A stretch of DNA of 64,000 nucleotides, from positions 47,818 to 111,817 of the forward strand of contig JBHPFI010000001.1 in assembly GCA_042572045.1 (NCBI GenBank). The letters are read 5' to 3'. The notes under the pieces were generated by a model, which saw only the letters and a program-made list of their open reading frames with translations, made no database searches and was not told the DNA's origin. Shown here piece by piece: positions 17,790 through 63,368 of the stretch. Origin of the DNA: Candidatus Omnitrophota bacterium (GTDB taxonomy: Bacteria; Omnitrophota; Gorgyraeia; Gorgyraeales; Gorgyraeaceae). The translations under genes and the position numbers were made by a program. Positions within the stretch are counted from its first letter, which is position 1, and every line of letters begins with the position of its first letter.

Positions 17790-17818
17790 TTGAAAGATAG
17801 CGTTTTCCATGGTATACT
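17790..17818 (+). promoter_or_regulatory. sigma70-like promoter of giant gene 1 (TTGAAA-17-TATACT)
   Basis: Conserved with the promoters at 38416-38444 and 59344-59372, at the same spacing. Confidence 0.5.
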
Positions 17819-17825
17819 ATATATA

Positions 17826-18050
17826 AGATATATAGCAGCAAGATTCAAGGCATAGCGTATGTACTTTATATGATTAACCAGGCCAGTAATAAGGGCTATT
17901 TTTTTGCCTATATTAAGTTAAACTTTAAAAAACTCTTATATATAGCAGAAAGATAGAAGACATAGCGTATATGCTGTATTGGACTAACTAAGTTGCCGAG
18001 AAAGGCTATTTTTTTGCCTACATTATGATAAACTTTAAAAAACTCTTCAG
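17826..18050 (+). repeat. tandem direct duplication (~112 bp x2) of the giant-gene leader and start region
   Basis: aagggctatttttttgcctatattaagttaaactttaaaaaactctta (17890-17937) repeats ggctatttttttgcctacattatgataaactttaaaaaactcttcag (18003-18050). The ATG is mutated to ATTAAG in the upstream copy. Confidence 0.6.
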
Positions 18051-21000
18051 TATTAAAATTATATCATTAGTTGTAGCTGTAACATTCTTTGTTACATCTA
18101 CATCTTATGGCATAGACATATCTGATAGGATCCACCTACGAACCCCTCTTTTATCTAATTCAAACGAAGGTACAAATAGGTTAAAACAGGCATTATCCTA
18201 TCAGTTAAGGCAGATGCTAGGTCAGGTGGTTAAGTCAGACACTACAGAAGATCTATCATTCTACGGCGAGACAAGGAGGGCTCTTTTATTAGAAGGCGGG
18301 AAGATTCTTTTAAATGAGGAGCTGTATAATAAATATAACTCTGAAAGCATCCTAGAAAGAACAGAGGCCCTTCAGACAATTATACATGAAACAATAGAGG
18401 CTTTGCTCCAGGTAATAAAAGCGGGCCATTCTTCTAGATATCGCTCCATGAAAGAATTAGCCTTAAATCATCTCGTAGAGCTCTATTTTGCCCTTCCCCA
18501 ATCTGATAAAAGTTATAGAGATGAAATTCTTGCCAATGACATCTGGGCTATTGCGTTTGAATACAGGCTAATGGGTGTAATTCTAGAGGATATCCAGGAC
18601 ACTAATCTTAGAGCATTCTTGAAAGAGGCATACGAGATTATTGACGCGCGCGGAAGCCTGTTTGGAGAGGAATTCAGCAATATTTATAGAGTCAAAGAAA
18701 CTGTGATAAATTCCATCAGAAGAGGGATGACTTTTGTCCCTGCGGCAGCTGGAGTAGATGATGTTGACAGGTCGCTTCTGGATGAAGAAATTCATGCAAT
18801 AGTAATAAGAAGAAAATTGAACGCTCGAATTATACAAAGAATGATAAATCGGAAAAAGAGGCATTTATCACCTTACATTGATGAGGTTGACAGGGCAACA
18901 GGTGTCCAGGTTCTTTCCTTAGCCCTTGCAGGAAAAAACCTTGTGGCAAGGCGAACAGCAGAAGATATTGCCCAGAGAGTTGGAGAAAATTTGGGGCATG
19001 CTATTGCTGGTGTAATTTTAGGAGACAGAAAACTGGCAGGAGCAATGAAGGGTATGGAGAGCGCCGCCGAACAAGATATATGGAAAGATGTTCAGCATGT
19101 TGTCTTAGGCGGCGGCGTACTCTCAGGCGAATTTGGGCATGAGGCAACAGCTGTTTCAGAACAGATTCTAAACAAGCACAACCTTGATGTAGAAGTTGAA
19201 CTTTCTGAATGGGGTAGATGGCTTAATCTAGTTGGCCTGGCTCGTTCTGTTGACATATCGAAACTTCGAGAATTATTTCCAGAAGGCGGTAGGGTAAGTT
19301 TTTTGGTTGCAGATTTCGGTAAAACTATGTGGAAACCAGCCGTGGTAGAAGTAGATGTAGATACAGGTAAGGTAGTTATGATAAATGTTCTTGAGAGCGT
19401 TCCTGTTCCTGAGAATGCAGTGCATCCAGTTGCAAGGCGTTGGTGGGTAACTACAAGGCTATTAGATATAATTGTAGCCCGTTTGCCTGTGCGAGCTCGA
19501 GAGTTTTTCTATGATCGTCGTATACAGAGAACTCGGGAATTTACTGAAGACAGGTTGCGGGAATTATATGCGAACCCGCGACTAAACGAATATAATAATT
19601 TTTCTTCTAATATACTTATGCTCACCGTAGGCATTGATGGATTGGACGATGGTCTTTTGCAAGAGGTATTGGGTAAGAAGGATACCACAGAGACAATAAC
19701 AGGAATATTGTGGGATACAAAGGCAAGCGCCCTGGCTCTTACAGGAAGGTACAAGGAGCCCACGGCCGTTATGGTTGTTGGTACGGGTGCTATCTTAACA
19801 TATGTTCCTGAGACAAAAGGAGAAGTCCTTTCTTTGGCAGATAGATTTATTGTTACAGAAGGACGAGGTGGAATAACCGAGATGGCCGCCCTACAAAAGG
19901 AAATCAAGTCTCCAGATGTTGATGCGCAAGGCAGGGATGAAAACGGAAAATTTACAGAAATCCCTGGGAAAAGTCCAGAATATATGAGGGATTTTGTAGC
20001 GACCCATTATGGAAACACCCCTTTTACCATTGCACAATATATTAAAGATTGGGAAATAGCTAACCCCGGAAGAAGATTGCCGCAAAGCACAGCCTATAGT
20101 GACTTAACTAAAGCAAGGGCAAACGGATGGATTGAAAAACGTGAAAAAGCTCATTATAGACTTACCGATAGCGGTTCTTCTTCGGCTTTAGGCTGTTTTG
20201 GAGTTCAGGTTTCACAGGACATATATGTAGTATCTGATGTCATGATAGATACATTTGGTGGGTCTAATTTTCGTGCAATTCATGTTGATAAAAACACCCA
20301 GCCATTATCACTGGCTGACTATGAGCGTTTTCTAGAAAAGTTAGGAACTGTTAGTCCGTCTTTACACAACCAACTTATGGAAGAGCCAGATCAGGGATTT
20401 CAACAGGTTAATTTAGTCTATTTTACCCCCGGACATATTCTTTTAAGAGCTAGTCGGACAAAAAATCCTGAGAGTATTCGTGACGACCTTCGTCATGAAT
20501 ATTTTGAACAAATGTTACGTATGGCCCCCCTAGAGGAGAGAGAAGCTTTCTCATTATTATATGAAAGGCTCTATACGGCCTATCCTGATTTTACGGCAGG
20601 CATCGATGTTCTTTTTGGAGAATTAGAACCTTATGCAGATCAGATTGGCCAAGAAATTTTTTGGGCAGACTTCTGGACTTATGTGGCTTGGCCAGATTTT
20701 TTGGGGCAAGAGTTTTCCGAGGATATTTTAAGGCGGCTTAGTGCGCAAGCACAAACAGATCCTATAATTGCTAGATCTCTTCCCGTAGTTTTAGAATCTC
20801 TTCAAGGACTCAGAGAACAATCGGAGCGGGCCGCTGATTTGACTGTTTCACAGCTTATCGAAACATTTATTGTTGAGGAGCAACGCCAATATGATTTACT
20901 CATTCCAGAAGCGCAGGATTCAAATATAAAGCTGGCGATGTTTGATGTAGGTGGGGTTTTATTTAAAGTAGATTTTCGTAGAAGCGTTGAAAAATTAAAA

Positions 21001-24000
21001 GAATTTTGCCCCAATCTAGTGGTAGAAGCTTCAGAGCAAGGAGAGATAGACGACTACATCTATAGTTTGTTTAGCGATAGACAAAGCGGTTATCTTGGAT
21101 ATCTATTGGAATCAGGTCGGATGGGACCAGAAGAATTTTTTCAAAGGGTGATAGATGTCTTGAAAAGAGAAGGCGTAGAAATAAGTCTGAGATATAGTGA
21201 GTTTATTGAAGTATGGAACGAGGCGTACGAAGGCCCTATAGAAGAAAACATTGCTTTATTTAAGACTTTTATTCTCAAGGGTTACACCGTATATGTACTT
21301 TCTAATAATAATCCTCTCCACAAGGAACTTGTGCTGTCTCTACTTGAGAGGGAAGGGATCTCTTTTAGCCGCAGACATTTTATATCTTCCCATGAGCTTA
21401 GAATGCTTAAAGGCGAAGACACAGAAACGTTTGAGCAGGTTTTGAAGGATAAACGTATTGGGGTTGAGGTTATTAGTGGTAGTAACTTTAGAGCAAGGGT
21501 TTCTCCGGAAGAGATCATATTTTTTGACGATTCACTAGTTAATGTCAGGATGGCAACTAGCGCTAACATAAATGCTCTACATTATACAGGAGAAAAAGGA
21601 TTCGCTCAGAAAGTTAGTGATGTATTGATGCAGCCTGTTGAAAAACCACGGGCTCTTCGAGGTCTTGTTGATAAATACGTGCAAGCAAGAAAAGCCTTAA
21701 AAGCTCAAAGAGAAAGATTTGAGGACATGGTAGTTGATTTACCAGTTCGAGAACGGGTTGATCTTGAAAGGTTAAGAACATTGGGTAGCGAGTTAGGACT
21801 TGATGAGTTAGAGCAAGAAGCAGAAGCCCTAAAAGAAGAACTAAGTAAATATAGAGCTCCTGATGGGCATATATCCTGGTGGCATTATGGAAGTCAAGAA
21901 GCTAATGACTGGCCCACAAGTTATTCTAGAGATAGAGAGCTACCAGCAGATGAGGTTTGGGATATGGAAAGAGAGCCGTCAACAGATGAAGTGTGGATAG
22001 GTTTGGAACAAGTAGCTCTTGGCGCCAAGGTTATTGCTGTTGATTTTGGAAGAACGCTCGTACCTACCAATGCTCGTATTATAGCAGTTGATGAGTTTCT
22101 GTTAAACTGCTTATCAGTCATGGAACTACTTTTAGTTGCTGATAGTGAATTGCGCATTTATATAATTTCTGGAGCAGCTGTTAGAGAAAGAATAGAAGAG
22201 GTGATAATGTTTTTTCCTAGTCGCTTTCATATGTTAAGTACAAGTACAAGGTTTAGGGTTAGCGAAACAGTATATGATAAAGGCCAGGAGGTGCAAGAAA
22301 TATTACATGAGTCTAATCTACCGGAAAGTTCAGTAATCGCTATAGGCGACAGCGAAGAAAATGATCGCCCAATGGCCCTTAGTGAAGGTTATTTTGTTCA
22401 AGTGTATCCTCATACGCGATCTGTTAGCCCAAATGCATTAGATGTACTAGGACGCATCCTAGATATAAAGGGCCAGATTTTTGTACAGCGTGAAGACATA
22501 GAAGATCAAGATTTAGGTGCAATGGGTAAGTTTTTTATCAAAGATGCTTCTTATGATCATGGGAGGAGTACACTTTCTGTTAGGTTAATTGATATGGAAA
22601 AGCCTCAAAGAAACTTAGAGAGCGTAAAGATAAATGCTCAACGTGCTCCTCCAGGATTGATAAATGAAACATTGCAGCAACTGATGGTGATGAGTACGAA
22701 CCCAATGGTAGGGAGGATTATACGTTGGTACACAGATGAATTTGTAAGAAGTGGAGACGCCCTTATCCTCGAAGATAATAAAAGAGATCTATTAGGTCTA
22801 GGCAAGAGAAATATTATTGCAGTATCACGCCATCTAATAAATAACCCCGTAGCTTTATTCCATGAAATAGCCCATGCATATTTTGACGCACACCCTAACG
22901 AAATAGCCCGCATAGAAAGACAGCTTGCCAAGGGAAGGTTAAGATGGGTAAATTCAAAAGATCAGTCACTTAGGACTCATTATGTACTAAGGGCATTCCA
23001 GAGGCAGATATTCAAAGAAAAAGATAGATATCTTACCCAGCTTATAAATAACGTTAAGGAGACCAGAGAATCAGTATCCAGAAGAGAGTTGTTTTATTTG
23101 GGAGACAATTTAATAGAGCTAAAGCAGCTAATACCATTGGCCGAAGCTCTTGAAAGTGCATTAGGGCAGATTGATGATGAAAGGGCAAGAGCAATGCTTT
23201 CAGGAGGCTTTTCAGTAGATGCTGGTGGATATAGCATTGATAATCCAGGCGAACATTTATTGGACATTGTTATAAGAGATGAAACTGGTTCTAAGGTGGC
23301 TGCAATAAAGGTTTGGCCCCTTAAACAAGCAGATGGCGTATCGTATGATAAAAAGGGAGTGTTTTTAGAATGGTTTGGCATAGAGCCATCATGGATGAAA
23401 GGAAGAGGGGTGTCTGGACCAACACTATACCAGGCATTAGCAAGATTTTTGCATGAATTAGGTTATGAGGAGATATATGCCAATATAAAATGGGGTTCTG
23501 ATGATTTCTGGGAAAATATGGGTTTTGAACCTGCAGAAGAAAGTATATATATACCTGGTAGCATACCTGGTTTTTATATAGAAAAACCAGGGGTTATAAG
23601 AGGTGGTAATTGTCCTACGATTGCGCAACTGCATAAAGGAATAATTACAGATCATGTTGCTGAAGGCAAAGCTTCAATGTTAAACATCAGAGGCTTAACA
23701 CCTGAACAGCACGATATGCTTAATCAAGCCTTAGGGACCTTCTTTGTAGGTTTAAACCAGGTACGCAGTGATATAGATGTCCTTGGGGAAGAAGAACTTG
23801 GTAGAATAGACCCGGAAGGTGTTTTAGGAGAAGTAGAAGACCTCAGGGCTTATAGATTCACTAGGGAACAGTTACAACAAGCACTTGAAGATATAGATGC
23901 CCTTCCAGAGGATATAGAATATATCATAGCTAACCTTATTGCCCATCCAGGTAGATTCAGGGATACAAAGGGTATCCCAAGGGCAACAAATCTTTTTATC

Positions 24001-27000
24001 CTGGATGAACACTATAATATCCTTACTCAATTAGAATCTAGTCTACAGGCTCAATGGGCAAGACATGAGCGTGCACATTTAGATGATATCACGCGTTCAG
24101 AGCAAGATATACAAATTGATCATCCAATTGATAGTGTAGTAGGATCTTTAAGAATCAGGATTGCAGAAGCCCGGTTGCTTTCCGAAACCGATAAACTTGA
24201 TGAATATTTTCTAAAAGAAGTTTGGCCTGATGATTTGACCCAGAAGATCGAGCGAATAATCAATGGGAGGCCTATTACCACTATATTCGGGAAGAACTTT
24301 TTGTTTGTAGGTCGATTTCTTTTTATTACACAAACAGAACGGGGCAAACACAAAGATGAGCTTCAGGATTTTAAGGATTCTGTTATTATATGTAACCTTT
24401 CTTATAGTGAGCACAGCCCTTTTCTTAACTTTGAATGGGGGATTAATACACTTTTAGCAGTTCAGATGCTCCAGGCATATGAAGATGAGGTCAGAGGTAA
24501 AACACTTCTTGATGCTGGTAGCGGTTCGGATGCAGTACTGGGGATGGTGGCTCATAGATTAGGTACAAAACAGGTTTTCTGCGTTGAAGGAAATGGAGAA
24601 AAGGCTAGGGGATCAAGGACATTTTTGGAGATAAACGGAATCGACCAGGGGGTTGTAAGAGTAGTGCATGCTGAGTTCTCTGAACTATTAAGCTCTCCGC
24701 AATTAATAGATAAGCCGGATATTGTAATCGCCAATCTTTCTTATAATGGCTTTTATGCAGAAGACAGAAGCGTACCTCGCATTTCTGATTTAGAAGGGCT
24801 TAAGAACTGGCACAGCCAATTAGCGAGAAGATTTTCTCCTGAACTTTATTTTCTCTGTGGAGCTGTGGAGGAATTCCCTAGTAGAAAACCAGCGGGATGG
24901 ATAGAAGTAGCCAAAGGAGCGATGGATGAAGCCGGCTATAAGATTGCTTTAGAAGAGAGTTTGTACCGCGTAAGGGAAGACGAATCAACTACTTTTGTAT
25001 TAGAGCCTGCGATTGGCCAGACTCAGAAGACGCCCGATGAAATTCTGAGAAACATCATGAGGAGTAGAGATGAAAATAGAATTATCGCCCTTATCGATGA
25101 ACTTAGAAAGGCAACATATGATTCTATAGAGGATACAGATATCTATCTAAACAGAGCCCAAGTACATCTATCTAAGTTAAGAATAGAAAGGCGTAGACGT
25201 AAAAGAACGCTACTTGATACACGAGCTGAATTAGATGCGCTGATACGTGAAGCATCAAAGAGGCCCTTTGGTTTTTCTGTGCAAGAGGTAGAGGGGGGAG
25301 ATCTATTTATAGTAGTCAATGGACAGGTTCCTTTGGAAGATGAAGATTATAAAATAATACTATATAATTTGGTATCATTAAAGAAAATTGTTTCTGAATG
25401 GGGCTCTGATAGAGGCGAAGAATTGATAGATTATGTTAGAAGAAGGACGCTTTCTGGATTTCTTGAGATCGACGACATCAGTCATGAGCAGGGATTTTTA
25501 AGCTTAAAAATTGGCGGTTGTGTTTCAGTGACTATAGATATAGCAACCTTAGAGATAGTTTCACAGTCTGGATTGACATTTTTGCCAAAAGCGGATTTTT
25601 ACGACAGTGGCGTGGTGCGCGAATTCGGGGATTACGTTGCAGGACTTATGGAGTCGGAGCTTGGATTCGATGGAGAAGCAAATATGGGGCTAGATACTAT
25701 TTTGTCTTGGGAGTATGGCGCAAGGGCAGCGAGCAAAAAAGTTGACAGTATACAAGGAGCGAAGTCTTTTGAATTAGACGCTGCTTCTGCAGATGAAGAA
25801 TTGCCTAGTGAGGGGGCCGCCGAAGGCGAAGACGGAAAAACCCAAGCCGAGATAGCTAAAGACAAATTGCTCGGGGAAGAATTTGCTCCTTTGGATCATC
25901 CGCACAATATCGCTAATAAGTTAAACGATTGGTATTATCAAGCGTTTGGAGGGGCGGCTTTCAGAAAAACGGAAAGAGTCGGTACCCTTGAAGAAGCAAG
26001 CGCAAAAAAAAGCGCAGAGGAATTTTATGACACATTGAAGATTTTGGATAGCCAAGGTAGCTTGCTAGAAGAGATTGTAGTTCAAGAATGGGGCGCGGGA
26101 GATGGTTATTCTGCCGCTGTTTTTCTAAGTAGACTAAAAGAGCTTGATGAAGAAAATGGCACTAGCTATTATCAAAGATTACGATACGTTCTGATCGATA
26201 AATCCTCAACAGCCGCTGAGGATATAAAAACCAATCCTTATTTATTAGAGCATGCAAGAGTAATAGATACGCGTGTGATGGATGTTTTAGAGGGCGGAGA
26301 GAAGCTTCGCGAGATATTATTAATAAGGGCCAACTCCCTCTTGAATTCACTTCCTAAAAAGATGTTTAAGATTACGAATGGCGACATTTATGAATTATAT
26401 ACAAGGCCATATCTTGATATGGATGAGGTAGAGGTATTGGTAGATAGTAGCGGCAGGAAATACGGGATCGAAGATATGCGGCGCATACTTAGTGAAGAGG
26501 ATGTAGAAGCTATGCGCCGACTCGGCAGAGAGTTCTTCAGGCGCATAAAGTGGGAGGAAAGATACGAGCCGATTACAAGTACAGAGGAATTGCCCTATGG
26601 AGAATATCTGGAAAGCTTGGTTAGGGATGGTTTTGAGGGAAGCATTGCCCTGGATCTAGGTGCACTAACATGCCTAAATAATATGTTGATACAGCTATCC
26701 TCTCACGGCAGCTTACGGATATGTGATGCAGGCGCCGTAGAGTATCCCGAGATAGGAGAAGTAGCTGGCAAATTATTCAGATTCTATGGAGCCATCTATT
26801 CTCCTGTAAATTTTCATTTTTTAAATGAAACGGCCCCTGTTTCAGTAGGAGCAGTAAGTCAGGTCGCTTATGGCGGCGAGTATGTGCAAAAGAGAATTGG
26901 GTTGGTGAAAGTTCTCAATCTTATCCTAAAAGATTTTGAAACGTTTAAAAGATATTTCAATGCAGAAACTTTTTTTACGCCACCATCTCTAACAGTCCCT

Positions 27001-28536
27001 GAAGGTCAAAGAACAGGGTTATTGGAAACATCGGATACCCTCATGCAAGAATACGGGTTTAGCGAAGAAGGTCTGGAAGTATTTAAACAAAGATTGGCGG
27101 ATAGTAGACAGAATATGCATCGTCGACGGATAGATGAGATAGCTCTTTCGTTTGAGGAAACAGGAAATTTTGTAGGTAATTACGTAGATGCATATATATA
27201 TTGGGTATATAGACGGATGGGAGCAGAAAGAAATAATTTACTGGAAAGCCAGAGGTGGCTAATTCCCGGCTCTTGGCAGGACTTAGCCGCTTACGATCAA
27301 TATAAAGAATTTACTAAATTTTGTACTATTTATAATTTTTACGGTGCCGTAGATGCTATTTTTGATGACATGGAAAGCTTTTTCCCTGGATTAAAGGTGT
27401 TTACTGTTAGGCCGGATAAGACTAGTGGCCCATCTTTATTAGAAACTTCCACGAACGAACTTGATATTGATACGCAAGGCAGGGATGGACAGGGAAGATT
27501 TGCAGAACTCCCTGGGAAAAGTCCGGAATATATGAGGGATTTTGTAGCGACCCATTATGGAGACAGCCCTTTTACTATTGCTCAATATATTAAAGACTGG
27601 GAGGCAGCTAATCCTGGGAGAAGATTGCCGCGTAGTACAGCATATAGCGATTTAAGGAGAGCAAGGGCAAATGGATGGATAGAGGGATCCAAAGAAGGAG
27701 CTCATTTAGATTTAGACGAGTTAATGAGATATTCTTCGATAGGCGGGAGTGCACTCAACCATGAGCTGGTTTTTCATATCAAAGGCAGTGATAGTAAGGA
27801 TCCGGAAGTGGCTAGAGATGAGAATTTAAGAAATATGCAAGTAATTGCAGTAGAATCAACTCTAGACCCAGAGTTTTTTGGCGAGGATCATACTACGCAC
27901 ACATTGTTATTTATAGATACTGAAAAAGACGAGGTGGTTGGTTACGCTGGAGTTGCAATACAAGGGGAGCGCATTATTGGCGGTTCAGGCAAGGTTTTTG
28001 ACTCATTTAGAAATCATGGTTACATGGGGAGAGCCGTAAAGCTTTTACTTTTAAGCCGTCAAACAAAAGAATGGTTCTCGTCTTACTCATTAGAAAAGCC
28101 GGCAGAAAGAATGTATCAAAGAATTGGAGAAGACTCGCGATTTATCATAACATCTGTCAGGCCTTCAGGATACCTCTTAAGGCTTAAGGCCGAGCAAGTC
28201 GCTATGAGTGAGTTACAGCAAACAGTTGTACTATTCTCAGGAGATGAAGCGCAAGATAACCTTGATGGCTTTAGGCAGGCATTAGATGAGCTAGATGAGA
28301 CCAATACAGCTGTAGTAATAGTAGATTCAGAAGAACAGCAGAGATTTTTCATAGAGCACAGAGGAGAACTAGGAAGATTTTATATTAGAACACCGGGACA
28401 ATTAGGTTTAGCTAGCTTTGATTTAGAACAGGTCATGACTACGATAATGGGTATAGATAATCTTAGATGCGTTCCTCTCACAGATTCCCTCTGCGACACC
28501 TTTGAATCCCTTAAGCAGGCCAGGGGCCAGGTGTAG
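18025..28536 (+). CDS. giant secreted multidomain protein, paralog 1 (3503 aa)
   Basis: Uninterrupted 10.5-kb ORF. N-terminal signal-like MINFKKLFSIKIISLVVAVTFFVTSTSYG. Internal motifs: HAD (MFDVGGVLF...YVLSNNN...FFDDSLVNV ~20930-21600), HExxH (FHEIAHAYF ~22861), GNAT-like (~23290-23530 and ~27895-28130), PrmA-like methyltransferase (LLDAGSGSDA...DIVIANLSY ~24440-24800), second SAM methyltransferase (QEWGAGDG ~26000-26350). The repeated ~70-aa module occurs twice, and the C-terminal domain is conserved. Confidence 0.85.
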   Translation: MINFKKLFSIKIISLVVAVTFFVTSTSYGIDISDRIHLRTPLLSNSNEGTNRLKQALSYQLRQMLGQVVKSDTTEDLSFYGETRRALLLEGGKILLNEELYNKYNSESILERTEALQTIIHETIEALLQVIKAGHSSRYRSMKELALNHLVELYFALPQSDKSYRDEILANDIWAIAFEYRLMGVILEDIQDTNLRAFLKEAYEIIDARGSLFGEEFSNIYRVKETVINSIRRGMTFVPAAAGVDDVDRSLLDEEIHAIVIRRKLNARIIQRMINRKKRHLSPYIDEVDRATGVQVLSLALAGKNLVARRTAEDIAQRVGENLGHAIAGVILGDRKLAGAMKGMESAAEQDIWKDVQHVVLGGGVLSGEFGHEATAVSEQILNKHNLDVEVELSEWGRWLNLVGLARSVDISKLRELFPEGGRVSFLVADFGKTMWKPAVVEVDVDTGKVVMINVLESVPVPENAVHPVARRWWVTTRLLDIIVARLPVRAREFFYDRRIQRTREFTEDRLRELYANPRLNEYNNFSSNILMLTVGIDGLDDGLLQEVLGKKDTTETITGILWDTKASALALTGRYKEPTAVMVVGTGAILTYVPETKGEVLSLADRFIVTEGRGGITEMAALQKEIKSPDVDAQGRDENGKFTEIPGKSPEYMRDFVATHYGNTPFTIAQYIKDWEIANPGRRLPQSTAYSDLTKARANGWIEKREKAHYRLTDSGSSSALGCFGVQVSQDIYVVSDVMIDTFGGSNFRAIHVDKNTQPLSLADYERFLEKLGTVSPSLHNQLMEEPDQGFQQVNLVYFTPGHILLRASRTKNPESIRDDLRHEYFEQMLRMAPLEEREAFSLLYERLYTAYPDFTAGIDVLFGELEPYADQIGQEIFWADFWTYVAWPDFLGQEFSEDILRRLSAQAQTDPIIARSLPVVLESLQGLREQSERAADLTVSQLIETFIVEEQRQYDLLIPEAQDSNIKLAMFDVGGVLFKVDFRRSVEKLKEFCPNLVVEASEQGEIDDYIYSLFSDRQSGYLGYLLESGRMGPEEFFQRVIDVLKREGVEISLRYSEFIEVWNEAYEGPIEENIALFKTFILKGYTVYVLSNNNPLHKELVLSLLEREGISFSRRHFISSHELRMLKGEDTETFEQVLKDKRIGVEVISGSNFRARVSPEEIIFFDDSLVNVRMATSANINALHYTGEKGFAQKVSDVLMQPVEKPRALRGLVDKYVQARKALKAQRERFEDMVVDLPVRERVDLERLRTLGSELGLDELEQEAEALKEELSKYRAPDGHISWWHYGSQEANDWPTSYSRDRELPADEVWDMEREPSTDEVWIGLEQVALGAKVIAVDFGRTLVPTNARIIAVDEFLLNCLSVMELLLVADSELRIYIISGAAVRERIEEVIMFFPSRFHMLSTSTRFRVSETVYDKGQEVQEILHESNLPESSVIAIGDSEENDRPMALSEGYFVQVYPHTRSVSPNALDVLGRILDIKGQIFVQREDIEDQDLGAMGKFFIKDASYDHGRSTLSVRLIDMEKPQRNLESVKINAQRAPPGLINETLQQLMVMSTNPMVGRIIRWYTDEFVRSGDALILEDNKRDLLGLGKRNIIAVSRHLINNPVALFHEIAHAYFDAHPNEIARIERQLAKGRLRWVNSKDQSLRTHYVLRAFQRQIFKEKDRYLTQLINNVKETRESVSRRELFYLGDNLIELKQLIPLAEALESALGQIDDERARAMLSGGFSVDAGGYSIDNPGEHLLDIVIRDETGSKVAAIKVWPLKQADGVSYDKKGVFLEWFGIEPSWMKGRGVSGPTLYQALARFLHELGYEEIYANIKWGSDDFWENMGFEPAEESIYIPGSIPGFYIEKPGVIRGGNCPTIAQLHKGIITDHVAEGKASMLNIRGLTPEQHDMLNQALGTFFVGLNQVRSDIDVLGEEELGRIDPEGVLGEVEDLRAYRFTREQLQQALEDIDALPEDIEYIIANLIAHPGRFRDTKGIPRATNLFILDEHYNILTQLESSLQAQWARHERAHLDDITRSEQDIQIDHPIDSVVGSLRIRIAEARLLSETDKLDEYFLKEVWPDDLTQKIERIINGRPITTIFGKNFLFVGRFLFITQTERGKHKDELQDFKDSVIICNLSYSEHSPFLNFEWGINTLLAVQMLQAYEDEVRGKTLLDAGSGSDAVLGMVAHRLGTKQVFCVEGNGEKARGSRTFLEINGIDQGVVRVVHAEFSELLSSPQLIDKPDIVIANLSYNGFYAEDRSVPRISDLEGLKNWHSQLARRFSPELYFLCGAVEEFPSRKPAGWIEVAKGAMDEAGYKIALEESLYRVREDESTTFVLEPAIGQTQKTPDEILRNIMRSRDENRIIALIDELRKATYDSIEDTDIYLNRAQVHLSKLRIERRRRKRTLLDTRAELDALIREASKRPFGFSVQEVEGGDLFIVVNGQVPLEDEDYKIILYNLVSLKKIVSEWGSDRGEELIDYVRRRTLSGFLEIDDISHEQGFLSLKIGGCVSVTIDIATLEIVSQSGLTFLPKADFYDSGVVREFGDYVAGLMESELGFDGEANMGLDTILSWEYGARAASKKVDSIQGAKSFELDAASADEELPSEGAAEGEDGKTQAEIAKDKLLGEEFAPLDHPHNIANKLNDWYYQAFGGAAFRKTERVGTLEEASAKKSAEEFYDTLKILDSQGSLLEEIVVQEWGAGDGYSAAVFLSRLKELDEENGTSYYQRLRYVLIDKSSTAAEDIKTNPYLLEHARVIDTRVMDVLEGGEKLREILLIRANSLLNSLPKKMFKITNGDIYELYTRPYLDMDEVEVLVDSSGRKYGIEDMRRILSEEDVEAMRRLGREFFRRIKWEERYEPITSTEELPYGEYLESLVRDGFEGSIALDLGALTCLNNMLIQLSSHGSLRICDAGAVEYPEIGEVAGKLFRFYGAIYSPVNFHFLNETAPVSVGAVSQVAYGGEYVQKRIGLVKVLNLILKDFETFKRYFNAETFFTPPSLTVPEGQRTGLLETSDTLMQEYGFSEEGLEVFKQRLADSRQNMHRRRIDEIALSFEETGNFVGNYVDAYIYWVYRRMGAERNNLLESQRWLIPGSWQDLAAYDQYKEFTKFCTIYNFYGAVDAIFDDMESFFPGLKVFTVRPDKTSGPSLLETSTNELDIDTQGRDGQGRFAELPGKSPEYMRDFVATHYGDSPFTIAQYIKDWEAANPGRRLPRSTAYSDLRRARANGWIEGSKEGAHLDLDELMRYSSIGGSALNHELVFHIKGSDSKDPEVARDENLRNMQVIAVESTLDPEFFGEDHTTHTLLFIDTEKDEVVGYAGVAIQGERIIGGSGKVFDSFRNHGYMGRAVKLLLLSRQTKEWFSSYSLEKPAERMYQRIGEDSRFIITSVRPSGYLLRLKAEQVAMSELQQTVVLFSGDEAQDNLDGFRQALDELDETNTAVVIVDSEEQQRFFIEHRGELGRFYIRTPGQLGLASFDLEQVMTTIMGIDNLRCVPLTDSLCDTFESLKQARGQV
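19915..20136 (+). repeat. conserved ~70-aa module, copy 1 (DVDAQGRDENGKFTEIPGKSPEYMRDFVATHYG..PFTIAQYIKDWE.ANPGRRLP.STAYSDL..ARANGWIE)
   Basis: Near-identical to 27463-27684 and 44704-44926 (~90% nt identity). Confidence 0.8.
27463..27684 (+). repeat. conserved ~70-aa module, copy 2 (within giant gene 1)
   Basis: DIDTQGRDGQGRFAELPGKSPEYMRDFVATHYGDSPFTIAQYIKDWEAANPGRRLPRSTAYSDLRRARANGWIE. Confidence 0.8.
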
Positions 28537-38415: not shown

Positions 38416-38444
38416 TTGAAGGATAACGTTTTCTGTGATATACT
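38416..38444 (+). promoter_or_regulatory. sigma70-like promoter of giant gene 2 (TTGAAG-17-TATACT)
   Basis: Paralogous to 17790-17818 and 59344-59372. Confidence 0.5.
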
Positions 38445-38546
38445 TTATATTAATCAGATATACATAGCAGGGATATTTAGGCCATAGAATATATAGATAT
38501 ATGTATTAACCAAGCCGTTAAGAAAGGCTATTTTTTTGCCTACATT

Positions 38547-41500
38547 ATGATAAACTTTAAAAAACTCTTCAGTATGAGGATTGTATCATTAGTCGTAGCT
38601 GTAACATTCTTTGTTACATCTACGTCTTATGGCATAGATATACCTGATAGATCCCACTTAAGGACCCCTCTTTTAACAAATTCAGACCAAGGGACCAGTA
38701 GGTTAAAGCAAGCCCTATTCTACCAGTTAAGACAGATGCTAGGCCAGGTAGTCAATGCAGACACTTCCAAAGACCTTGCCTTTTACGAAGGAGAAAAACA
38801 AGCCCTTTTGCTAGAAGATGGAAAGATCCTGGTAAATGAAGAGCTATATGATAAGTATAACTCTGAGATCCCGGGAGAAAGAACCGAAGCCCTTCAGGTA
38901 CTCATACATGAGACAGTAGAGGCACTTCTCCAGGTTGTAAAAAGAAACCATTCCTCCAGATATCAGACTATGAAGGAGCTGGCCTTAAGTAACCTCCCAG
39001 CACTCTATTTTCGCATTCCCCACCAAGCTGATAAGACCTACCGCGATGAAATCCTTGCAAATGACATCTGGGCAGTTGCATTTGAATACAGAATGATGGG
39101 CATAACCCCAGAACAGGTCCAAGACCCTGATCTCCAAAACTTCCTAAAAAAATCCTATGAGATTATTGATGCACGCAGAAGCCTATTTGGTGAGGAGTTC
39201 AACAGCCCTTACAGGGCTAAAGAGACTGTAGTAGAGGCCTTAAGAAGAGGGTTTGAGTTTAAGAGGGTAGCGAGAGCAGACGCGCAGGAAGAGATGAAGG
39301 GCGGGAAAGAGGTAGTTTTTTTGCAGGCCAGCGTGGCCGACGATTTAATCTATCCAGAAGGCAAGTCGGGATTAATGAACTCTGTGGAAGAGCTGAAAGG
39401 CAAGCCGATTAGGTTTGATATTATCAACGGAGAGATTTTGTTGCAAGATGAGCAGCCGCTATTTAGATTATTAGGGCTTGAGACTTCTCATTCTCAGCAG
39501 GATTTCTTGGAGTATGGGCTCTGCGCGCTTATCCGGGAGCGGCTCTTAGAGACAGATGTTTCTACATTAGGCGATTTGCGCAATCTTAGTTTTGTTTTTG
39601 GTGACGAAGATAGTGCTTCTGTCTCTGGATTTGATTTCCGTAGCCCATATGCTAAAAGTGGAAGAAACGGAATATTTTTTATAAACGTTAAGGCATTAGC
39701 TGCGCTAGAAAAGCCTCAGGACAGACAGACTGCTTTTATTTTAGGCGTCTCACATATGATATCGCATGAGGCCTTAAAAGGCGCGGATACAGTTGAACCA
39801 ATTTTGCTGGCCCAGGATATAAGATTAGCGACTACTCCCGGCAGAATCAGCATGGACCCTAGCGCTTTTATTGAAAACTTTAGAGCTACTGTAAGGCTTG
39901 ACTCCGGACCTTATGAGGGCATATTAAGATTTCTTGATACCGGCTATTTACGGCGAGAGAATATAGAAATATTAGCATCTAGCGGCATAATGAGAGATTT
40001 ATTTCAAGCCCTACCTGAATTGGATGCATTATACGCGGCGCGTTACAAAGGAAAAAGCTTTCTTTCAAAAGAGGAAAGAACAGCTGTGTTCCAATATGCC
40101 ACTATATTGGTCCATCAGGGAAGGATAAAGGAGGCCAGAGAAGTTATTGAACAACCGCTTGGTCGAACTGCTATACTCGGCAGTAGTTACGACAAAGAAT
40201 TATACAAAGCAGAACTCCAGTATTATTTGAATATGGGAGATATTGTTTCAGCGGTTACGCTTACAGAAAAGTTTTTTGCAGAATTTCCAGATGACTGGAG
40301 GGTAACGAACGGAAGTTTTGTAAAAGAGTTTGTTAGTAGAGGATATTTTCAGCAAGCTCGCGAACTTCTGAAAAAATACTATCAAGGCGATGAAATCCGT
40401 CCCGGCGGAGAGCTGCAACATATCGCGTTTTTGTATAAAGAGCTAGGGGAGTTTAATGATTTAATTAATATATGTAAACTTATACCCCTTCAGTTCAAGC
40501 CAGAAGATAGGCCTCGCGAACAATATGCTATGATAACATCTTGTATTCTTGCAGATATGGCGATACATCTTGTAGAAGAAGGCAGGATGAGCGAAGCAAT
40601 CGCCATTGCTTATGAGCCAGGACTTGAGCCGTATAGATTAGTAGTGTTAGCCAAGCTAGTTACTTTTCTTCTAACTAGTGATCGCGCTGATTATCAGGCT
40701 GAAGCGATGAATATCGTCGATAAACTTAAAGACGACCAAATTGTCAGCGCTTTAGTTAATAAACGAATAAGCATGTGGCCTGACCAGCCGGCATATGATT
40801 ATTACTATTATGCTTATATGGAAGGTGTTTACGCAGAAGCAATGTTTGCTATAGGTGAGTATGAATCATTAGCTCGTAAGGTTATCGTGACTACCAGTAT
40901 GGATTTTAATCTGGATTATATATTAGAACGTATTGGTTATGGCGAAGATTTATCGAGATTTATTCAGACCTGCGTAGTGGTTGCTGCAGAGGTCGAGCCC
41001 CCTCAAAACAATATCTATTATCATAATCGCGGTCAATTGCATTTTAACTGTAGAATCGCTAGGATTATGTTTGACTGGGTGTATGAACATGGCTATAGAA
41101 AAACCGCAGAATTCATAGATTCCTATTTAGATGATATTGAGCCAGATAGAACTCATCCAGAAAGACCTTCTTGGGTAATAGCAAAATTAACAGCCCAAGC
41201 TTGTTTACGTAGGGAAATGGACGATTCCCTTGTTGAAGAATGCCGCGGCTACGAAAACGGAGAAAAAATTCTAACTAGCCTTGCCGAACAACGTAAAAAA
41301 AGAAACGAAGCTTTTCCAGCAGACAAAGAAAAAAAAGGCATAAGGAGGTATTGGGAAGATGAATACACTCGAAAGTTTAAACAAACTACAGGAAGTCTTG
41401 ACATAAGAGCTGCTGGGTATCCATCATTGCAAACTTTATTGGAACGCCCTGTTGACCCTTTCAGTGCTAAGAGTAATAGATTTCCAAATATGACTAAAGA

Positions 41501-44500
41501 GTGCCATGGATATGTTACGCGTAGTTCATGGATACTATCGCGATCAGTTATAGGAGCAGTGCTAGAGCGCAGAGAAGGGTATGACAGATTGGCGGAAGAA
41601 ATCGGACCTTACAGGGTTCAGGCACTTTTAGATAGTGTTATACAAAGAAGAGGCGCTGATGCTTATTTTGTTTTCGAGGGGTTTATTGCACTTTTTCATG
41701 CCGGGATTACTAACGTTGACATGTTAGACAGGATAGACCTTGTTCTTACTCCTCTGGCCAGAAAGGCAGGTGTCGGGATAGCTAAGGCCTACGAGGATTT
41801 TGTAGATTTACTATCAGCAGGCATTCCTATTGAAGAAGGCTTGAAGCTTATAGGGACGGTAGTCGAAAGAGAATCTAGTGAGATTTCGGTCGCATATGAT
41901 AGCTTATATGTACTTATTAGAGAAGATATAGTAAATGTTTTAGTTCAGGCCGGCATTTCGCAGCAAGAAGTAGTAAGCTTTTTACAAAACATTGCTACTG
42001 GAGATAGATGGGATACTTCTTTTATTTTTTGGAGCTTAGTAGCGTTGGCCAGGTCAAATCTTATAAACGGAGATAGCTATCCTACCATTGGCCATCTATA
42101 TAAGGAGCTCTCATCATTCCAGAGGGGTGTTAGGAGATTTAAAAGTCTATTTAATAGAGCTAACGGGGCGGTCACAGAAGAGCATTTTAAACAGTTTGAA
42201 GAACGGGCCAAGGATATATATAATGCGCTTGAAATGCAGAATATAATTAGAAAAGGGCAAGTAGTAAAAGAAGAGATAGAAGAGTTTCTTGGTCTAGACG
42301 TAGACCAGGCTGATAGAAAGTATTTGGCGGGATTAAGCTTAAGGAATACTCAAGAGCTCTCGACAGTGCAGAATATTTTGAGAGAAATTTACGGCCGTGC
42401 CTTTGCCGAACAGCACAGGATAGATGAAGTGCGTTTCTGGCCAATGCACCTTAGAAACATAGCCTTTTTCCAGGTAGCTTGCGGAAGAATAGGTCTGGAT
42501 GTTGCGAATTTTGTCGTCAGTTCCTTAGGACCGAGAAGATTGGACAATTTTCTGACGCAAACAATGGAAATATATACTGACGAATCTTATGTGCGTGGAT
42601 TAATTTCGCTATTAAACGGTTCCCAGGACAGGCATCCCGGGCTTGCTTTGCATATAGTGGAATACGCCGCGGCCTATAGCCAGTTAGAGTTGGGAACAGA
42701 GTTTGGCAAGGTAGTCGCAGGAGTGGTGTCGGATAAATTTGGACTTAGACAGGCAAAAATAGACTTAGGAACCGAATTATTCAGGCTATTTTCCCAACAG
42801 CTTGGCTTGCAAGTGGATAACATATCGGAAGATATGATTAATGCCTGGGAGTTGAGCTATCTTTCTAAATTGTTTGTGGGACGCAAAATGATTCATGCCA
42901 AGGGAACGGCCTACAGGCCCCTTCAGGATTTATTCGATAGCATTATTACATCAACGCTCGAGGGCAGGTTTGAGCAATTTATTATGGACACTAATCCTGA
43001 GACAAACGCTTATCCGATGGGCGTTAGAGTGGCCGAGCACAATGAGCAATTAAGAGCGGCGTTGTCCGAAAAGGGGATAGACGTGGCTTTTTGGCTTAGG
43101 TACAGTGAGACGAGCTCCTTTGGTTTTAGTGCCGAAGAAGACGAAGGCGAGGTCATTGATATAATCGGTGAATTGGGTGCATTGGCCGATGCCCTTTCTT
43201 TTATATTGAATAAACTTCCGGGCGATGAAGCGAGGTATGGAGAAGCCATTCTAGGCAGCCTTAGAAAGATGGAGATTTTTCTTGATACGACGGATCCGGA
43301 GCGCCCCTTTTTCTGTAGGATCATGAAGGACGGCGAGCTGTCTACTGATCCGGAAGATGTCTTGTCCGTCTTGTTTGACGGACAGAGATTGCCGGGCTTG
43401 AGAAAAAATCTTGCGTATGTGCAGGGACGCACCGTAGAGCAGGAAGTCGCGACTGCGATATTTCATTTTGTAGAGGATATAGATAGGGTCGACGGAATTG
43501 TCGCAAAGACGGATTTAAAAGATCTTACAAGTGGCGCGGAGAGGTTTACGGTCAAGGTGTGGGGTCGAAACCCCGCAAGGGATATATTCCAGGGTAATTT
43601 TACCAGTTGTTGCGTTGCGATTGATAACAATCTTCATCCGGAGGCGATCCTGGAATACTTAATTGATCAAGGTATTCAGGTGGTAGAGGTGATTAATGAA
43701 GCCACAGGCGAAACGATCGCCCAGACATGGTGTTTTATCGCGATGGATGGTGATGGCGAGGCTGTCTTGGTTATGGACAACATAGAGGTGGTAGGTAAAT
43801 ACGCAGCAGCAGGAACTGATGAGAATAATATAATCAGGGATAATATACTAAGCTATCTGCAAAGATATACGAGGGCAATAGGCGCTAAAGGTCTTTATTT
43901 GGGAAACACCCCATATCAAGACGTGGATGTATCGACGTTTGAGAGAGTTCCGGTAAGCCTGACAAAGTTAGGAGGCAATCTATGGGCTTATGAAGGAGAG
44001 GGTCAGGGGTATCGTTATTATCTGGAGGCGCTTTACAGCGAAGACCGCAGCAGGAGAAAGACTGAGGCCCACAGGATGTCGTTACCCGAGGTGTCCGTTG
44101 ATGAGACTGCAACCGATGCAGGCTTTAGCATAGAAGTCATTACTCCTGATACAATCGATTGGAAATTGATAGGCGAGTTGGCAGCAGTAGAAGTCGATGC
44201 CTATGCTGGGCCTATGGTACTGGGCGTAGAATCCATTAGAAGCGTAGTGGAAAACCCTAAAGCCGTATGCCTTGTTATAAGAGATGACTCCAGCGGGAGA
44301 ATCGCGGGATATCGATTTGCCATACCTTCGCAGGAATATCCGCAGAGTCCGATTGTAGGGGCTGACATACTTTATGGATACGATATCGCAATCCATCCCA
44401 AATATCAAAGGAGAGGGCTTTTTAGCAGGCTGCACGCGGAATTTATCGAGGAGGCACGCGCAAGAGGTTATACAGCGATGTCTGCGCATGTCAGAATAGC

Positions 44501-59343: not shown

Positions 59344-59372
59344 TTGAAAGATAGCGTTTTCTATGGTATAAT
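59344..59372 (+). promoter_or_regulatory. sigma70-like promoter of giant gene 3 (TTGAAA-17-TATAAT)
   Basis: Perfect -10 element. The conserved leader follows up to the ATG at 59464. Confidence 0.55.
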
Positions 59373-59463
59373 ATAACATAGATAGCAGGAATATCTAGGG
59401 CACATTGTATATTACATAGCGATTAACTAAGCCGTTAAGAAGGGCTATTTTTTTACCTACATT

Positions 59464-62400: not shown

Positions 62401-63312
62401 GATCCTTTAACAGGGACAGTGATGTTGACAGGAGCTGACGCAAAAGAATTTTTGCTTAGGTCAAAACAGTTCTATCACGAAACAACTGTATGTAATCTTG
62501 ATCCGAATCCTATGACAGTAGAGATTGACGAAACCTCGGTAACCCTTGATGATATAGGTGTCGTAGCGATAAAGCCTGGGTCCAGTTTATTGTTTAGAGA
62601 AATAAAAGGCGAGGTAGTGGTAATAATAACACAAAATCCAGAAGCAGTCAGTAGCTGGTATGCTCCTTACGACGAATCTCACGATTTATTTAAAGATAAA
62701 GGCTATAATGAGTCAGGGGTAATTTCCCCGCCTGAATGGTGGCAAAAAGGAGTCACTGTGATAGAGCATGAGTCCAGGGTTAACCAATGGACCTCCGAGC
62801 AGGAGCAGGAATGGCTTATTGATTCCATGACCTTTGGGTCCAATCTCCCAGGGATTTCTATGGTGAGATATTCTACAGATACGGGTGAGGCATGGGTCGA
62901 TTTTAGGGAAATAAGGCCAAGTGAGGACTATCATAGTCATCCAAATAAACCAGAAGGACAAGCAAACTTTATAGAAGTTTATTATATAGTTGAAGGTATG
63001 GCAACATTGCTATATGAAGAAGAAGGGGTGGTAAAAGTAACTGAGTTAGGCCCAGGAGGTATGTGGATAGCAAAAGACGAGGTCCCGCATACAATATTGG
63101 CATTTAAAGGCCCATATAAACATCTGGCGATACAAGTACCAAGTGTATTCCAATATGGGTTTAGATTCAAGGAGATTGTGGAACCGCCCCAGCCAGGTAT
63201 GGAGGAAATGTTAATGCAAACCCAGGAAGCAGACACAGGTATTTTAGAACTGCCCCCGCCAAGCATAGAGGAAATATTTATGCAAAACCAGGAAGTAAGC
63301 AGAGGGGTATAG
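59464..63312 (+). CDS. giant-family paralog 3 (1282 aa) with embedded GT5 glycogen-synthase-like and cupin domains
   Basis: N-terminus MINFKKLFTLKIISVIVSIAFLC shared with the family. ~60617-62055 looks like GlgA (RVAYASYEISPFVGKGGIKDV...GHEASVFIPYW; ...FLGRFDAQKGLD...MPSIFEPKGIVQMQAARFGAINLVNKVGGLRDDI). C-terminal cupin (HSHPNKPEGQANFIEVYYIVEG...PH ~62930-63140). Confidence 0.8.
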   Translation: MINFKKLFTLKIISVIVSIAFLCNASLYAHPESKNTLRISVGEQRTFDRIDDTMHQMVIDEPLAEAAKEAGTPRLNPLYLSNLSPEISEILTLLRQTGLGNFAEALKRLCDEERVQRFSPGRGEWIGIYGHASDERITVKAGLEAAREGAVLGHELLDWFNVQVDSVEELSTWIEVNENTPRHLGPAFEVALNRTLSGDTDVLTRFVEDFRRYLEPINVATRLSEQPNLLKETAETEERHYTSVPYSSLSMEQRFKEAMGSRYENIRNFRIDMRTGRYVFEKALNKKPDVWITYYYENAVPVDLDGSIDDLLALYEESVQEDESNVDIRYLIFKRIAKFRDRASHLEGVLKNIMDTETSDRVLDEIRVAINIVSGRAIDGGKRLRVAYASYEISPFVGKGGIKDVIQQLPRTLHNKRGHEASVFIPYWEEILDKSVEGNDAEIRIEEVGVFELHGERVEIYTLLMRNELTGDFEPIDGVPIYLLKCARYFSTEDGDIYRQALDRKIASHRISPKNAETAIFFSKAVLEAMKQMGLRPDIINTADWQTAHIATLLRKSKNPELYSFFKSTKTLHTIHNIGPKGLIAASPYAPEGSDERDMWDFMGISDDAYQPPDQNGVEFYGSASLQKGGIVFADMVSTVGISYASELKTTEFGSGFEGINRVAGVIGVPNGIALREWNPASSFSIERNFKNDPSEQDRQLSVLDAKEGKRENKKAMTAMVNDNRERNRATTLREFTCDEDTQVFCFLGRFDAQKGLDVLLSVLENEHEIKGLLESGKIKMIFAGTGNPEYMQRVKKLEELYPESVAYLGWVNEGTAKQLFAGADVNIMPSIFEPKGIVQMQAARFGAINLVNKVGGLRDDIIDFSEEEGGNGYVVDFANCSKEEAARLLRNQMLRVMWDFGNKAIWDAQVREVLADSAKFGWDLSCLKYELLFNASTGNYYDLFTRHLVDHIDEITGASFERIMTEIGKAYLARTRVFDPLTGTVMLTGADAKEFLLRSKQFYHETTVCNLDPNPMTVEIDETSVTLDDIGVVAIKPGSSLLFREIKGEVVVIITQNPEAVSSWYAPYDESHDLFKDKGYNESGVISPPEWWQKGVTVIEHESRVNQWTSEQEQEWLIDSMTFGSNLPGISMVRYSTDTGEAWVDFREIRPSEDYHSHPNKPEGQANFIEVYYIVEGMATLLYEEEGVVKVTELGPGGMWIAKDEVPHTILAFKGPYKHLAIQVPSVFQYGFRFKEIVEPPQPGMEEMLMQTQEADTGILELPPPSIEEIFMQNQEVSRGV

Positions 63313-63368
63313 AGATTCTCATAATATAGCCTTGTGAATAAGCGAGATGTTATTTTTTTGTCAAGATT

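Follow-up and report, generated by a model that had tools for sequence, protein, structure and literature searches.

A 5' cassette with a hairpin, U-tract and start-codon core, shared by genes for predicted exported, often very long proteins in an Omnitrophota genome

Omnitrophota are ultra-small bacteria that have not been cultured, probably live as predators or parasites, and are known for giant proteins that are membrane-associated or secreted. In the papers on their giant genes that we consulted, no conserved leader, promoter, N-terminal tag or mode of expression is mentioned. Here we analyzed 64,000 nt from a Candidatus Omnitrophota bacterium (contig JBHPFI010000001.1 of assembly GCA_042572045.1, positions 47,818 to 111,817 of the forward strand), hereafter called the window, with coordinates counted from its first nucleotide. 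Four genes of the window begin with all or part of the same 5' cassette, made of a predicted promoter, an untranslated leader that closes with a hairpin and a U-tract, a start codon, and first codons that encode a signal-peptide tag. In front of the first of these genes the leader is duplicated in tandem.

The order of elements in the leader recalls that of rnd, a gene in Escherichia coli, for which Zhang and Deutscher reportedly found, in 1989 and 1992, that a leader stem-loop and eight U are required for translation, the U-run being needed for the ribosome to bind. Two later papers cite this U-tract work (PMC3575828; PMC3592434). A U8 placed just upstream of the ribosome-binding site raised a reporter from 31 to 100 units, approximately threefold (PMC3575828), and A/U-rich enhancers act independently of the Shine-Dalgarno (SD) sequence (PMC3592434). 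As in rnd and the U-rich enhancers, the hairpin of the cassette is directly followed by a U-run near the start codon, an arrangement that looks like a terminator yet lies inside a 5' leader. The run likewise counts around 7-8 U and sits close upstream of the initiation site, single-stranded according to our predictions for genes 1-3. Unlike rnd and the tested reporters, which have an SD sequence, the cassette genes have none. Another difference from rnd is that hundreds of genes have the cassette and that it goes with one specific signal peptide; its role here is a prediction. Attenuators based on intrinsic terminators and the expression platforms of riboswitches also place a stem and then a U-tract between promoter and open reading frame (ORF), and the stem of the cassette covaries as theirs do. 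However, the stems of the window have only 3-4 bp, there is no alternative pairing or aptamer, and the spacing to the AUG is fixed.

Shared sequences at the 5' end of otherwise different genes are also known. The vsp genes of Mycoplasma bovis have a conserved sequence upstream of the ORF, the p35 genes of M. penetrans a conserved 5' end encoding the signal peptide, and in the ssl and spl clusters of Staphylococcus aureus recombination occurs in the region from upstream into the 5' end (PMC2568036). The cassette resembles them in that an upstream region and signal-peptide DNA are common to genes with differing bodies, with recombination at that place. It differs from them in having no lipobox, invertible promoter or tandem gene array, in the proteins encoded, which are multi-domain, enzyme-like giants, and in an RNA core that is a non-SD start region. 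At the protein level, the ESPR of autotransporters and the YSIRK-G/S motif are specialised N-terminal signal motifs of very large secreted proteins. The tag of the cassette is likewise a motif in the N-region, basic and conserved, of signal peptides that belong to exported proteins of unusual length, but it matches no Pfam or NCBIfam model and continues past the hydrophobic core with K-x-x-L-R-x-P.

Gene 1 (18025..28536, + strand) encodes a 3503-aa product with a signal peptide and RIHLRTP tag, a 238-aa N-domain, a HAD hydrolase domain and Methyltransf_28. Upstream of it, two units of 110 nt lie head to tail as a direct repeat, at 17828-17937 and 17938-18047 (+ strand). The copies are adjacent, their start-to-start spacing of 110 nt equals the unit length, and 87 of their 110 positions are identical (79%), a similarity far beyond chance (probability of such a tandem match around 1e-27 to 1e-31). 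This is a tandem duplication of the leader and start region, as the original prediction held, although its extent was given there as about 112 bp with some nine codons. The unit measured by repeat alignment spans from around +3 of the predicted transcript through codon 8 and includes 23 nt of coding sequence. One promoter, a predicted sigma-70 promoter at 17790..17818 (+; TTGAAA, 17-nt spacer, TG-extended TATACT) with a predicted transcription start near 17825, serves the two leaders.

The proximal unit, which is the functional one, contains a hairpin (GCC/GGC, 17995-18006), a U7 (18009-18015), the spacer GCCTACATT, the ATG at 18025 and codons 1-8. The upstream unit is laid out in the same way, with a hairpin (GGCC/GGCT, 17881-17897), a U7 (17899-17905) and the spacer GCCTATATT, and is decayed at the start. 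Its former start codon is now AAG (17915-17917), followed by 20 nt of former codons 2-8. The predicted decay of the upstream start is therefore seen in the alignment, where ATTATGATA has become ATTAAGTTA (ATTATG to ATTAAG) through two substitutions inside a 3-nt stretch. With its ATG restored, this unit would open a 13-codon upstream ORF, MINFKKLLYIAER*. The remainder of its 44-nt core has been kept. We count three changes, two of them in the start-codon region, where around 13 are expected from the divergence of the 5' part (binomial p=1.6e-4), and this non-coding copy retains 41/47 of positions -21 to +26.

At the duplication junction, codon 8 is joined to about +3 of the transcript (...AAAAAACTCTT followed directly by ATATATAGCAG...). 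Each copy is as distant from its neighbour as from the cassettes of the other genes, so the duplication may be old, or may have arisen when illegitimate recombination captured the leader of another cassette. The predicted fold pairs the decayed core (17897-17916) with the 19 nt that open the second unit (-15.9 kcal/mol, p=0.013). This pairing would hide the decoy U-tract; nothing like it is found elsewhere and we regard it as incidental. More generally, we considered a long-range pairing of the leader 5' end (ATAGCAGRAAGAT) with the U-run core and rejected it. It is nominally significant for gene 1 only, within the second unit (p=0.038) and between the decayed core and the start of that unit, and not for gene 2, gene 3 or the upstream unit. 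It was treated as a side effect of the duplication and not as a conserved switch.

Copies of the unit were also predicted, correctly, before genes 2 and 3. The unit of gene 2 (38460..38569, +) has a hairpin AGCC/GGCT at 38513-38529, a U7 at 38531-38537 and the same spacer as the functional unit of gene 1, and leads to the ATG at 38547. That of gene 3 (59376..59486, +) has a hairpin AGCC/GGCT at 59430-59446, a U7 at 59448-59454 and the spacer ACCTACATT, and leads to the ATG at 59464. Promoters are predicted at 38416..38444 for gene 2 (+; TTGAAG, 17-nt spacer, TG-extended TATACT) and at 59344..59372 for gene 3 (+; TTGAAA, 17-nt spacer, TG-extended TATAAT), giving for genes 1-3 the common pattern TTGAAA/TTGAAG-17-TGnTATACT/TATAAT. 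We infer the promoters and transcription starts of the cassette genes from these motifs.

The similarity had been described for the leaders of genes 1-3. The leaders do match, but in genes 1-3 the similarity begins around 50 nt upstream of the transcription start and so includes the promoter, and there is an extra copy at gene 4. The latter, found by a regular-expression scan and absent from the original note and ORF list, is a short core copy at 63337..63368 (+) with a U7 at 63353-63359 and the spacer GTCAAGATT, ahead of the ATG at 63369. Gene 4 (63369..64000, +) runs past the window end. It carries the tag MIKFRKDYNLKIISLIVSIVFFCSSTLYSYPNSKDTLRPP, and its N-terminus matches P0008, which is MFC1666338.1, a 1522-aa protein named NUDIX domain-containing protein. 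Its core adjoins gene 3, the ATG lying 56 nt past the gene 3 stop codon. Because no promoter was seen in these 56 nt, gene 4 is probably co-transcribed with gene 3. Its leader offers only a candidate hairpin made of A-U pairs (AATAA/TTATT). Since U7, spacing and AUG are kept here without a promoter or a clear hairpin, the core appears to be independent of the promoter.

The four 110-nt units of the window (two at gene 1, one each at genes 2 and 3) are 75-79% identical in pairwise comparisons and roughly equidistant. This identity is uneven. It amounts to 62-70% over the first 66 nt, a part that is unalignable to other lineages, and to 89-100% over the 44 nt that close the unit, GGCTATTTTTTTGCCTACATTATGATAAACTTTAAAAAACTCTT. 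From -21 to +26, genes 1-3 agree at 44-47 of 47 sites, and genes 1 and 2 at 47/47; in this last pair the following coding sequence is 77% identical overall and 64% at third codon positions.

The start sites themselves are unusual for the window. The cassette genes lack an SD sequence at -20 to -4, and their anti-SD duplexes (+1.4 to +2.0 kcal/mol) are among the window's weakest, while approximately half of the other window ORFs have GGAGG-like sites with duplexes of -6 to -13 kcal/mol. The first codons are A-rich, and the U-run is predicted to be 76-88% unpaired in the functional copies of genes 1-3. We also considered an antisense promoter over the start, as CATAAT is the reverse complement of ATTATG; a candidate is seen at gene 3 only, with a poor -35, and was treated as chance.

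An exact-pattern scan of one genome per species recovered only two true homologues, L001 and L002, both from metagenome-assembled genomes (MAGs) labelled 'uncultured Planctomycetia'. The same kind of scan in the Joint Genome Institute (JGI) metagenome collection gave six matches, all of them chance, without tag or start context. Protein searches with the N-domain, which found only six relatives, together with contig look-ups added L009, L010, L011, L012, L013 and L014. L010 comes from a Candidatus Omnitrophica MAG and L013 has the same sequence as L001, so that 12 leader copies were compared, 5 in the window and 7 distinct foreign ones. In the foreign loci a leader of around 53-106 nt, its 5' part unalignable, comes after a promoter-like TGnTATACT box; the promoter architecture is like that of gene 1 in L001, L009 and L010.

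Near the start codon, all these leaders follow the same layout. In 12/12 copies a hairpin ends 0-3 nt before a run of five to seven T (at gene 4, the A-U-only candidate). The run is a U7 at -16 to -10 in 9/12 copies, a U6 in two and a U5 in one. The spacer from U-run to start codon is 9 nt long and ends in AUU in 11/12 copies (12 nt in L011); these 11 have no indel in it, with 5 of its 9 positions variable, and the hairpin loops range from 3 to 26 nt. The hairpin arms are AGCC/GGCT or GGCC/GGCT in the window, L002 and L014. L001 has the same outer pairs as the window and an inserted 8-bp helix, L009 and L012 have ATGGCG/CGCCAT, L010 has CCCTT/AAGGG and L011 has AATTAACC/GGTTAATT. Compared to dinucleotide shuffles, a hairpin abutting the T-run is clear in L001, L009, L011 and L012, and over 8 lineages the Fisher combined value is p=5.6e-6. 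On an unsupervised MAFFT alignment, RNAalifold predicted the terminal hairpin as the only helix. Here 83% of the cells are paired; shuffles give 69% (0/500), and sliding the partners gives 23-50%. The ORF cannot extend N-terminally through the leader, since L002 and L010 have an in-frame TAG in the spacer.

The original prediction was of a conserved, structured 5' leader of approximately 90 nt, to be recognized by covariation and acting as a cis-regulatory RNA. Over its full length, the leader is not a structured RNA. Against dinucleotide shuffles, the folding z-score is 0.17 for the 229-nt leader of gene 1 and 0.28, 1.59 and 0.02 for genes 2-4, no Rfam family matches at gathering score (relaxing the E-value to 10 brings only noise), and the 5' 66 nt drifts. 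Covariation is found in the terminal hairpin, where the arms change on both sides; the rest of the leader has no conserved pairing. What stands of the cis-regulatory claim is a constraint on the untranslated core, in which a hairpin of 4-8 bp is the only recurring structure. This constraint goes beyond recent duplication, the core being kept in eight foreign loci despite different hairpin arms. An H-type pseudoknot (TTAAC/GTTAA interleaved with AGCC/GGCT), seen by eye in genes 2 and 3, L002, L009 and L010, did no better than shuffles (p=0.12 to 1.0).

To follow the tag, we built a profile from the first 45 residues of genes 1-4 and ran an exhaustive hidden Markov model (HMM) search against 1.84 billion representatives of clusters at 50% identity. 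With E<=1e-3 as the cut-off it returned 360 proteins, 41 of them at E<=1e-10, so that at least 360 clusters bear the tag; the proteins are 40-3963 aa in length, with the match nearly always at the N-terminus. A word-indexed search with a 44-aa tag profile found a single relative, so the family is visible only by exhaustive HMM search. The gene 1 product is identical to MFC1666310.1 (Candidatus Omnitrophota bacterium), which lies with MFC1666338.1 on a 176-kb contig of one Candidatus Omnitrophota MAG. The other named tag-bearing members are mostly Omnitrophota. Some members come from bins labelled Nanoarchaeota, Proteobacteria or Atribacteria, probably through mis-binning.

The tag comprises around 40 residues, a signal peptide followed by K-x-x-L-R-x-P, or more exactly K-x-(H/T)-L-R-x-P. 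Its consensus is M-[IL]-K-F-K-K-x-Y-N-x-K-I-I-S-L-x-V-A-x-x-F-L-x-N-S-T-x-Y-G-I-D-L-S-x-K-x-H-L-R-V-P, with K5, F20, Y27, L37 and R38 near-invariant, and it comes in two flavours, YGIDLSxKxHLRxP and YSYPxSKDTLRVP. No Pfam model (E up to 10) or NCBIfam model (E up to 1) matches it, including ESPR, YSIRK, Tat and KxYKxGKxW, and the consensus has no conserved lipobox. Judging from its sequence, the tag may be a sorting or processing signal.

Misannotated members of this family give an independent view of the leader. In 18 of the top 150 tag matches the start was called too far upstream, so that the leader is translated. The residues directly before the tag Met are [FL][FI]xxI in 14 of the 18, with variants in 2 more, and GYFF is present in 8. 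Back-translation of [FL][FI]xxI-M yields a T-run, 6 variable nt, ATH and ATG, and that of GYFF yields GGNTAYTTTTTT (GGNTAY-TTYTTY). As these members belong to different 50%-identity clusters and their middle codons vary, the T-run, the spacing and the AUU must have been kept by selection and not by recent duplication. Examples are P0025, P0033, P0048 and P0059, in which an extra N-terminus such as ...GYFFAYI-M... is the translated leader.

The genes behind the cassette are far less alike than their beginnings. Gene 2 (38547..48674, +; 3375 aa) has the tag and N-domain of gene 1. The two share the N-terminal 238 aa (72% identity), the C-terminal 143 aa and one module of around 100 aa, and differ in the middle, where gene 1 carries HAD and methyltransferase domains but gene 2 has GNAT, receiver and HATPase_c. 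Gene 3 (59464..63312, +; 1282 aa), with a YAHPESKNTLR variant of the tag and glycogen-synthase-like GT5 and GT1 domains, shares only its first 29 aa with gene 1. Genes 3 and 4 have their first 38 aa in common and nothing else. Because the bodies of genes 1-4 differ outside these shared ends, the shared object is, on the sequence evidence, a 5' cassette rather than a set of whole-gene paralogues.

The cassettes themselves are mosaics, as sequence comparison of their segments shows. Over the promoter segment from the -35 box to the start, gene 3 is closer to gene 1 (81% identity) than to gene 2 (58%), but its signal-peptide DNA is closer to gene 4 (75%, 48/64) than to gene 1 (58%, 37/64). The region scanned contains no inverted-repeat recombination sites beside the cassettes. 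The suggestion that the leader is a recombination hotspot generating paralogs is supported by these mosaics as far as recombination goes; the term paralogs was overstated for genes that share ends and one module (genes 1 and 2) or, in the case of gene 3, just those 29 residues.

Several further observations concern these proteins. The module of around 100 aa occurs at aa 626-723 and 3136-3240 of gene 1 and at aa 2041-2145 of gene 2 (68-77% identity), with the consensus GRDxxGKFxExPxKSPxYMRDFVATHYGxxPFTIAQYIKDWExANPGRRLPxSTAYSDLxxARANGWIE. The giant genes look like shuffled modules between conserved ends. The shared N-domain contains an H-E-x-x-E motif (IHETIE, aa 121-125 of gene 1), with H121 and E122 invariant in the alignment, and a similar motif is present in gene 4 (WHELDE, aa ~166-170). 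The AlphaFold model of the 238-aa N-domain was too poor to interpret (mean predicted local distance difference test score, pLDDT, of 53).

We favor, with moderate confidence, the explanation that the conserved core is an SD-independent translation-initiation region whose cassette is shuffled between genes by recombination. This Omnitrophota lineage would place a modular 5' cassette before a large family of exported, often very long proteins. In order, it would consist of an extended -10 sigma-70 promoter, a leader of around 55-100 nt with a free 5' part, a short hairpin, a U5-7, a 9-nt spacer ending in AUU, an AUG without SD sequence and A-rich first codons encoding the tag of approximately 40 residues. 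From the observed architecture, conservation, lack of SD sequences and mosaicism, we infer both the recruitment of ribosomes by the U-tract and the origin of the duplication. The single-stranded U-tract would recruit the 30S subunit, as U-rich enhancers of the protein-S1 type do, while the fixed spacing and the AUU-AUG context would position the start codon. U at -1 and -2 can extend pairing with the anticodon loop of the initiator tRNA, which would fit the invariant AUU. The hairpin would bound or present the U-tract, and may stabilise the mRNA. We prefer initiation over a regulator because the U-tract, the fixed spacing, the AUU-AUG, the A-rich codons and the low structure are features of initiation sites. 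Near-identical cores within the genome would be substrates for recombination or gene conversion, through which the cassette would pass from one gene body to another, unrelated one. Such rearrangement would have left the tandem duplication at gene 1 as a by-product, and the later removal of the upstream start codon would have avoided the short upstream ORF.

A number of points speak against this explanation. A hairpin with a U-run also marks intrinsic terminators and hairpin-dependent pauses, and the hairpins of L001, L009 and L012 are strong enough for it (-9 to -14 kcal/mol). The U-rich enhancers of the cited precedents act together with an SD sequence, so that initiation from the U-tract alone is an assumption made by analogy. 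Only two or three independent lineages supply the compensatory hairpin changes, and the arm anchors were picked by eye. Predicted accessibility of the U-run is low in the upstream unit of gene 1, L011, L014 and gene 4. Finally, part of the within-genome identity could stem from gene conversion and not from selection.

The first of these points leads to the strongest competitor, which we consider possible though unlikely, namely that the hairpin and U-run form a leader terminator, attenuator or pause site that stops or pauses the polymerase 10 nt before the start codon. As a terminator, it would make expression of the tagged genes dependent on read-through, for example by a factor acting on the polymerase or the hairpin. 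As a pause, it would let the leading ribosome be coupled to the polymerase ahead of 4-10 kb of gene. In either case gene 1, with its tandem copy, would have two sites. The stem lies 0-3 nt before the U5-7, between promoter and ORF, in all lineages, and the covariation of its arms points to selection on the helix itself. The 12-bp stem of L001 reaches -14 kcal/mol and those of L009 and L012 -9 to -11 kcal/mol; a G+C-rich stem of at least 5 bp with a loop of 3-8 nt is found in L001 and, roughly, in L009 and L012. The terminator of a riboswitch elsewhere in the window is also laid out alike, with a U8 just before the ribosome-binding site. However, the window copies fall below such a stem. They have 3-4 bp and a loop of 6-9 nt, at -3.3 to -5.2 kcal/mol (shuffle p=0.08-0.42 per copy), and fail a terminator scan in which the strongest terminator-like hairpins of the window have stems of 13-16 bp. 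Gene 4 retains U-run and spacing without a convincing hairpin. Termination or pausing also leaves unexplained the 9-nt spacing, the invariant AUU and the missing SD sequence. No conserved alternative (antiterminator) pairing was found, the TTAAC/GTTAA helix being not above shuffles, and no NusG paralogue is encoded in the window.

We are more doubtful that the core serves as operator to a trans-acting regulator of its own, either a protein that binds RNA or a small RNA, which would read it and co-regulate or localise the mRNAs of the tagged secretome. Such a regulator is compatible with initiation at the core as well as with termination. It would account for the same core ahead of hundreds of otherwise unrelated genes, for nucleotide-level conservation that reaches into the first codons, even in the non-coding upstream copy, and for a recurrent TTAAC motif that, as we read the sequences, lies 15-35 nt before the U-run in 8 to 10 of the 12 copies. 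Nevertheless, no gene of the window is linked to the cassette or is a candidate regulator, and the conserved features (U-run, spacing, start context) are generic to initiation regions.

It is very improbable that the leader has no function and that the similarity reflects only recent duplication and gene conversion, the null hypothesis that accompanied the original prediction. Within the genome, high similarity extends to the promoter spacer and the first 90 coding nt, recombination is evident from the mosaic pattern, and the 5' 66 nt drifts freely. At the family level, however, this null is already contradicted by the sequences. The core persists in the eight foreign loci and in 16/18 clusters of misextended proteins (<=50% protein identity) while 6 spacer nt vary, hairpin arms have been replaced by different complementary pairs, and the upstream copy lost its start codon but kept the remaining core. 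Least credible of all is a riboswitch or other large structured cis-regulatory RNA filling the leader of around 90 nt, for, although a leader between promoter and ORF with a terminal hairpin and U-run resembles an expression platform, there is no Rfam match up to an E-value of 10, folding z-scores are 0.0-1.6, leader length varies from around 53 to 106 nt with 5' parts unalignable across lineages, and the candidate pseudoknot is not above shuffles.

Other features of the window were noted. A c-di-GMP-I-GGC riboswitch (RF03167) lies at 53254-53336 on the minus strand and scores 60.3 bits against a gathering score of 59. It is followed by a 16-bp terminator with a U8 (53193-53229, -) and then by a GGGG Shine-Dalgarno sequence. 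The ORF behind it (52288-53175, -) encodes 295 aa without a Pfam domain and contains Gly/Ser-type tandem repeats (52340-52592). A 24-nt element, CCCGCYTTCTAAAANNAGTATCAT, occurs at 38260-38283 and 50604-50627 (+; 2 found, 0 expected). At the second site, TATCAT lies 6 nt before the ATG at 50634, and a similar sequence, TAAAAATAGTATCATgtaaatATG, is present upstream of 55515. From their sequence and position, these elements resemble promoters from which leaderless mRNAs start. Immediately behind the stop codon of gene 1, a small cold-shock-protein-like ORF (~28568-28923, +) has its own predicted TTGACA-17-TATACT promoter and a 5' untranslated region of around 130 nt.

For the biology of the Omnitrophota, the tag and the cassette would allow exported proteins to be listed by sequence, even where short contigs hold only fragments of them, and the cassette would correct start-codon calls such as those of the 18 extended proteins. 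It points to an unusual mode of translation initiation or of leader control, and shows unrelated gene bodies gaining the same expression and export signals by recombination. A bolder and rather improbable idea is that RNA core and tag together form an Omnitrophota-specific, secretome-wide module, in which a dedicated factor or a specialised initiation would couple the start of translation, and possibly a polymerase pause, to a particular export route for very long proteins. If true, such a signal would be more than an efficient start site, namely a cis-element of a new class by which a regulon of hundreds of genes is marked.

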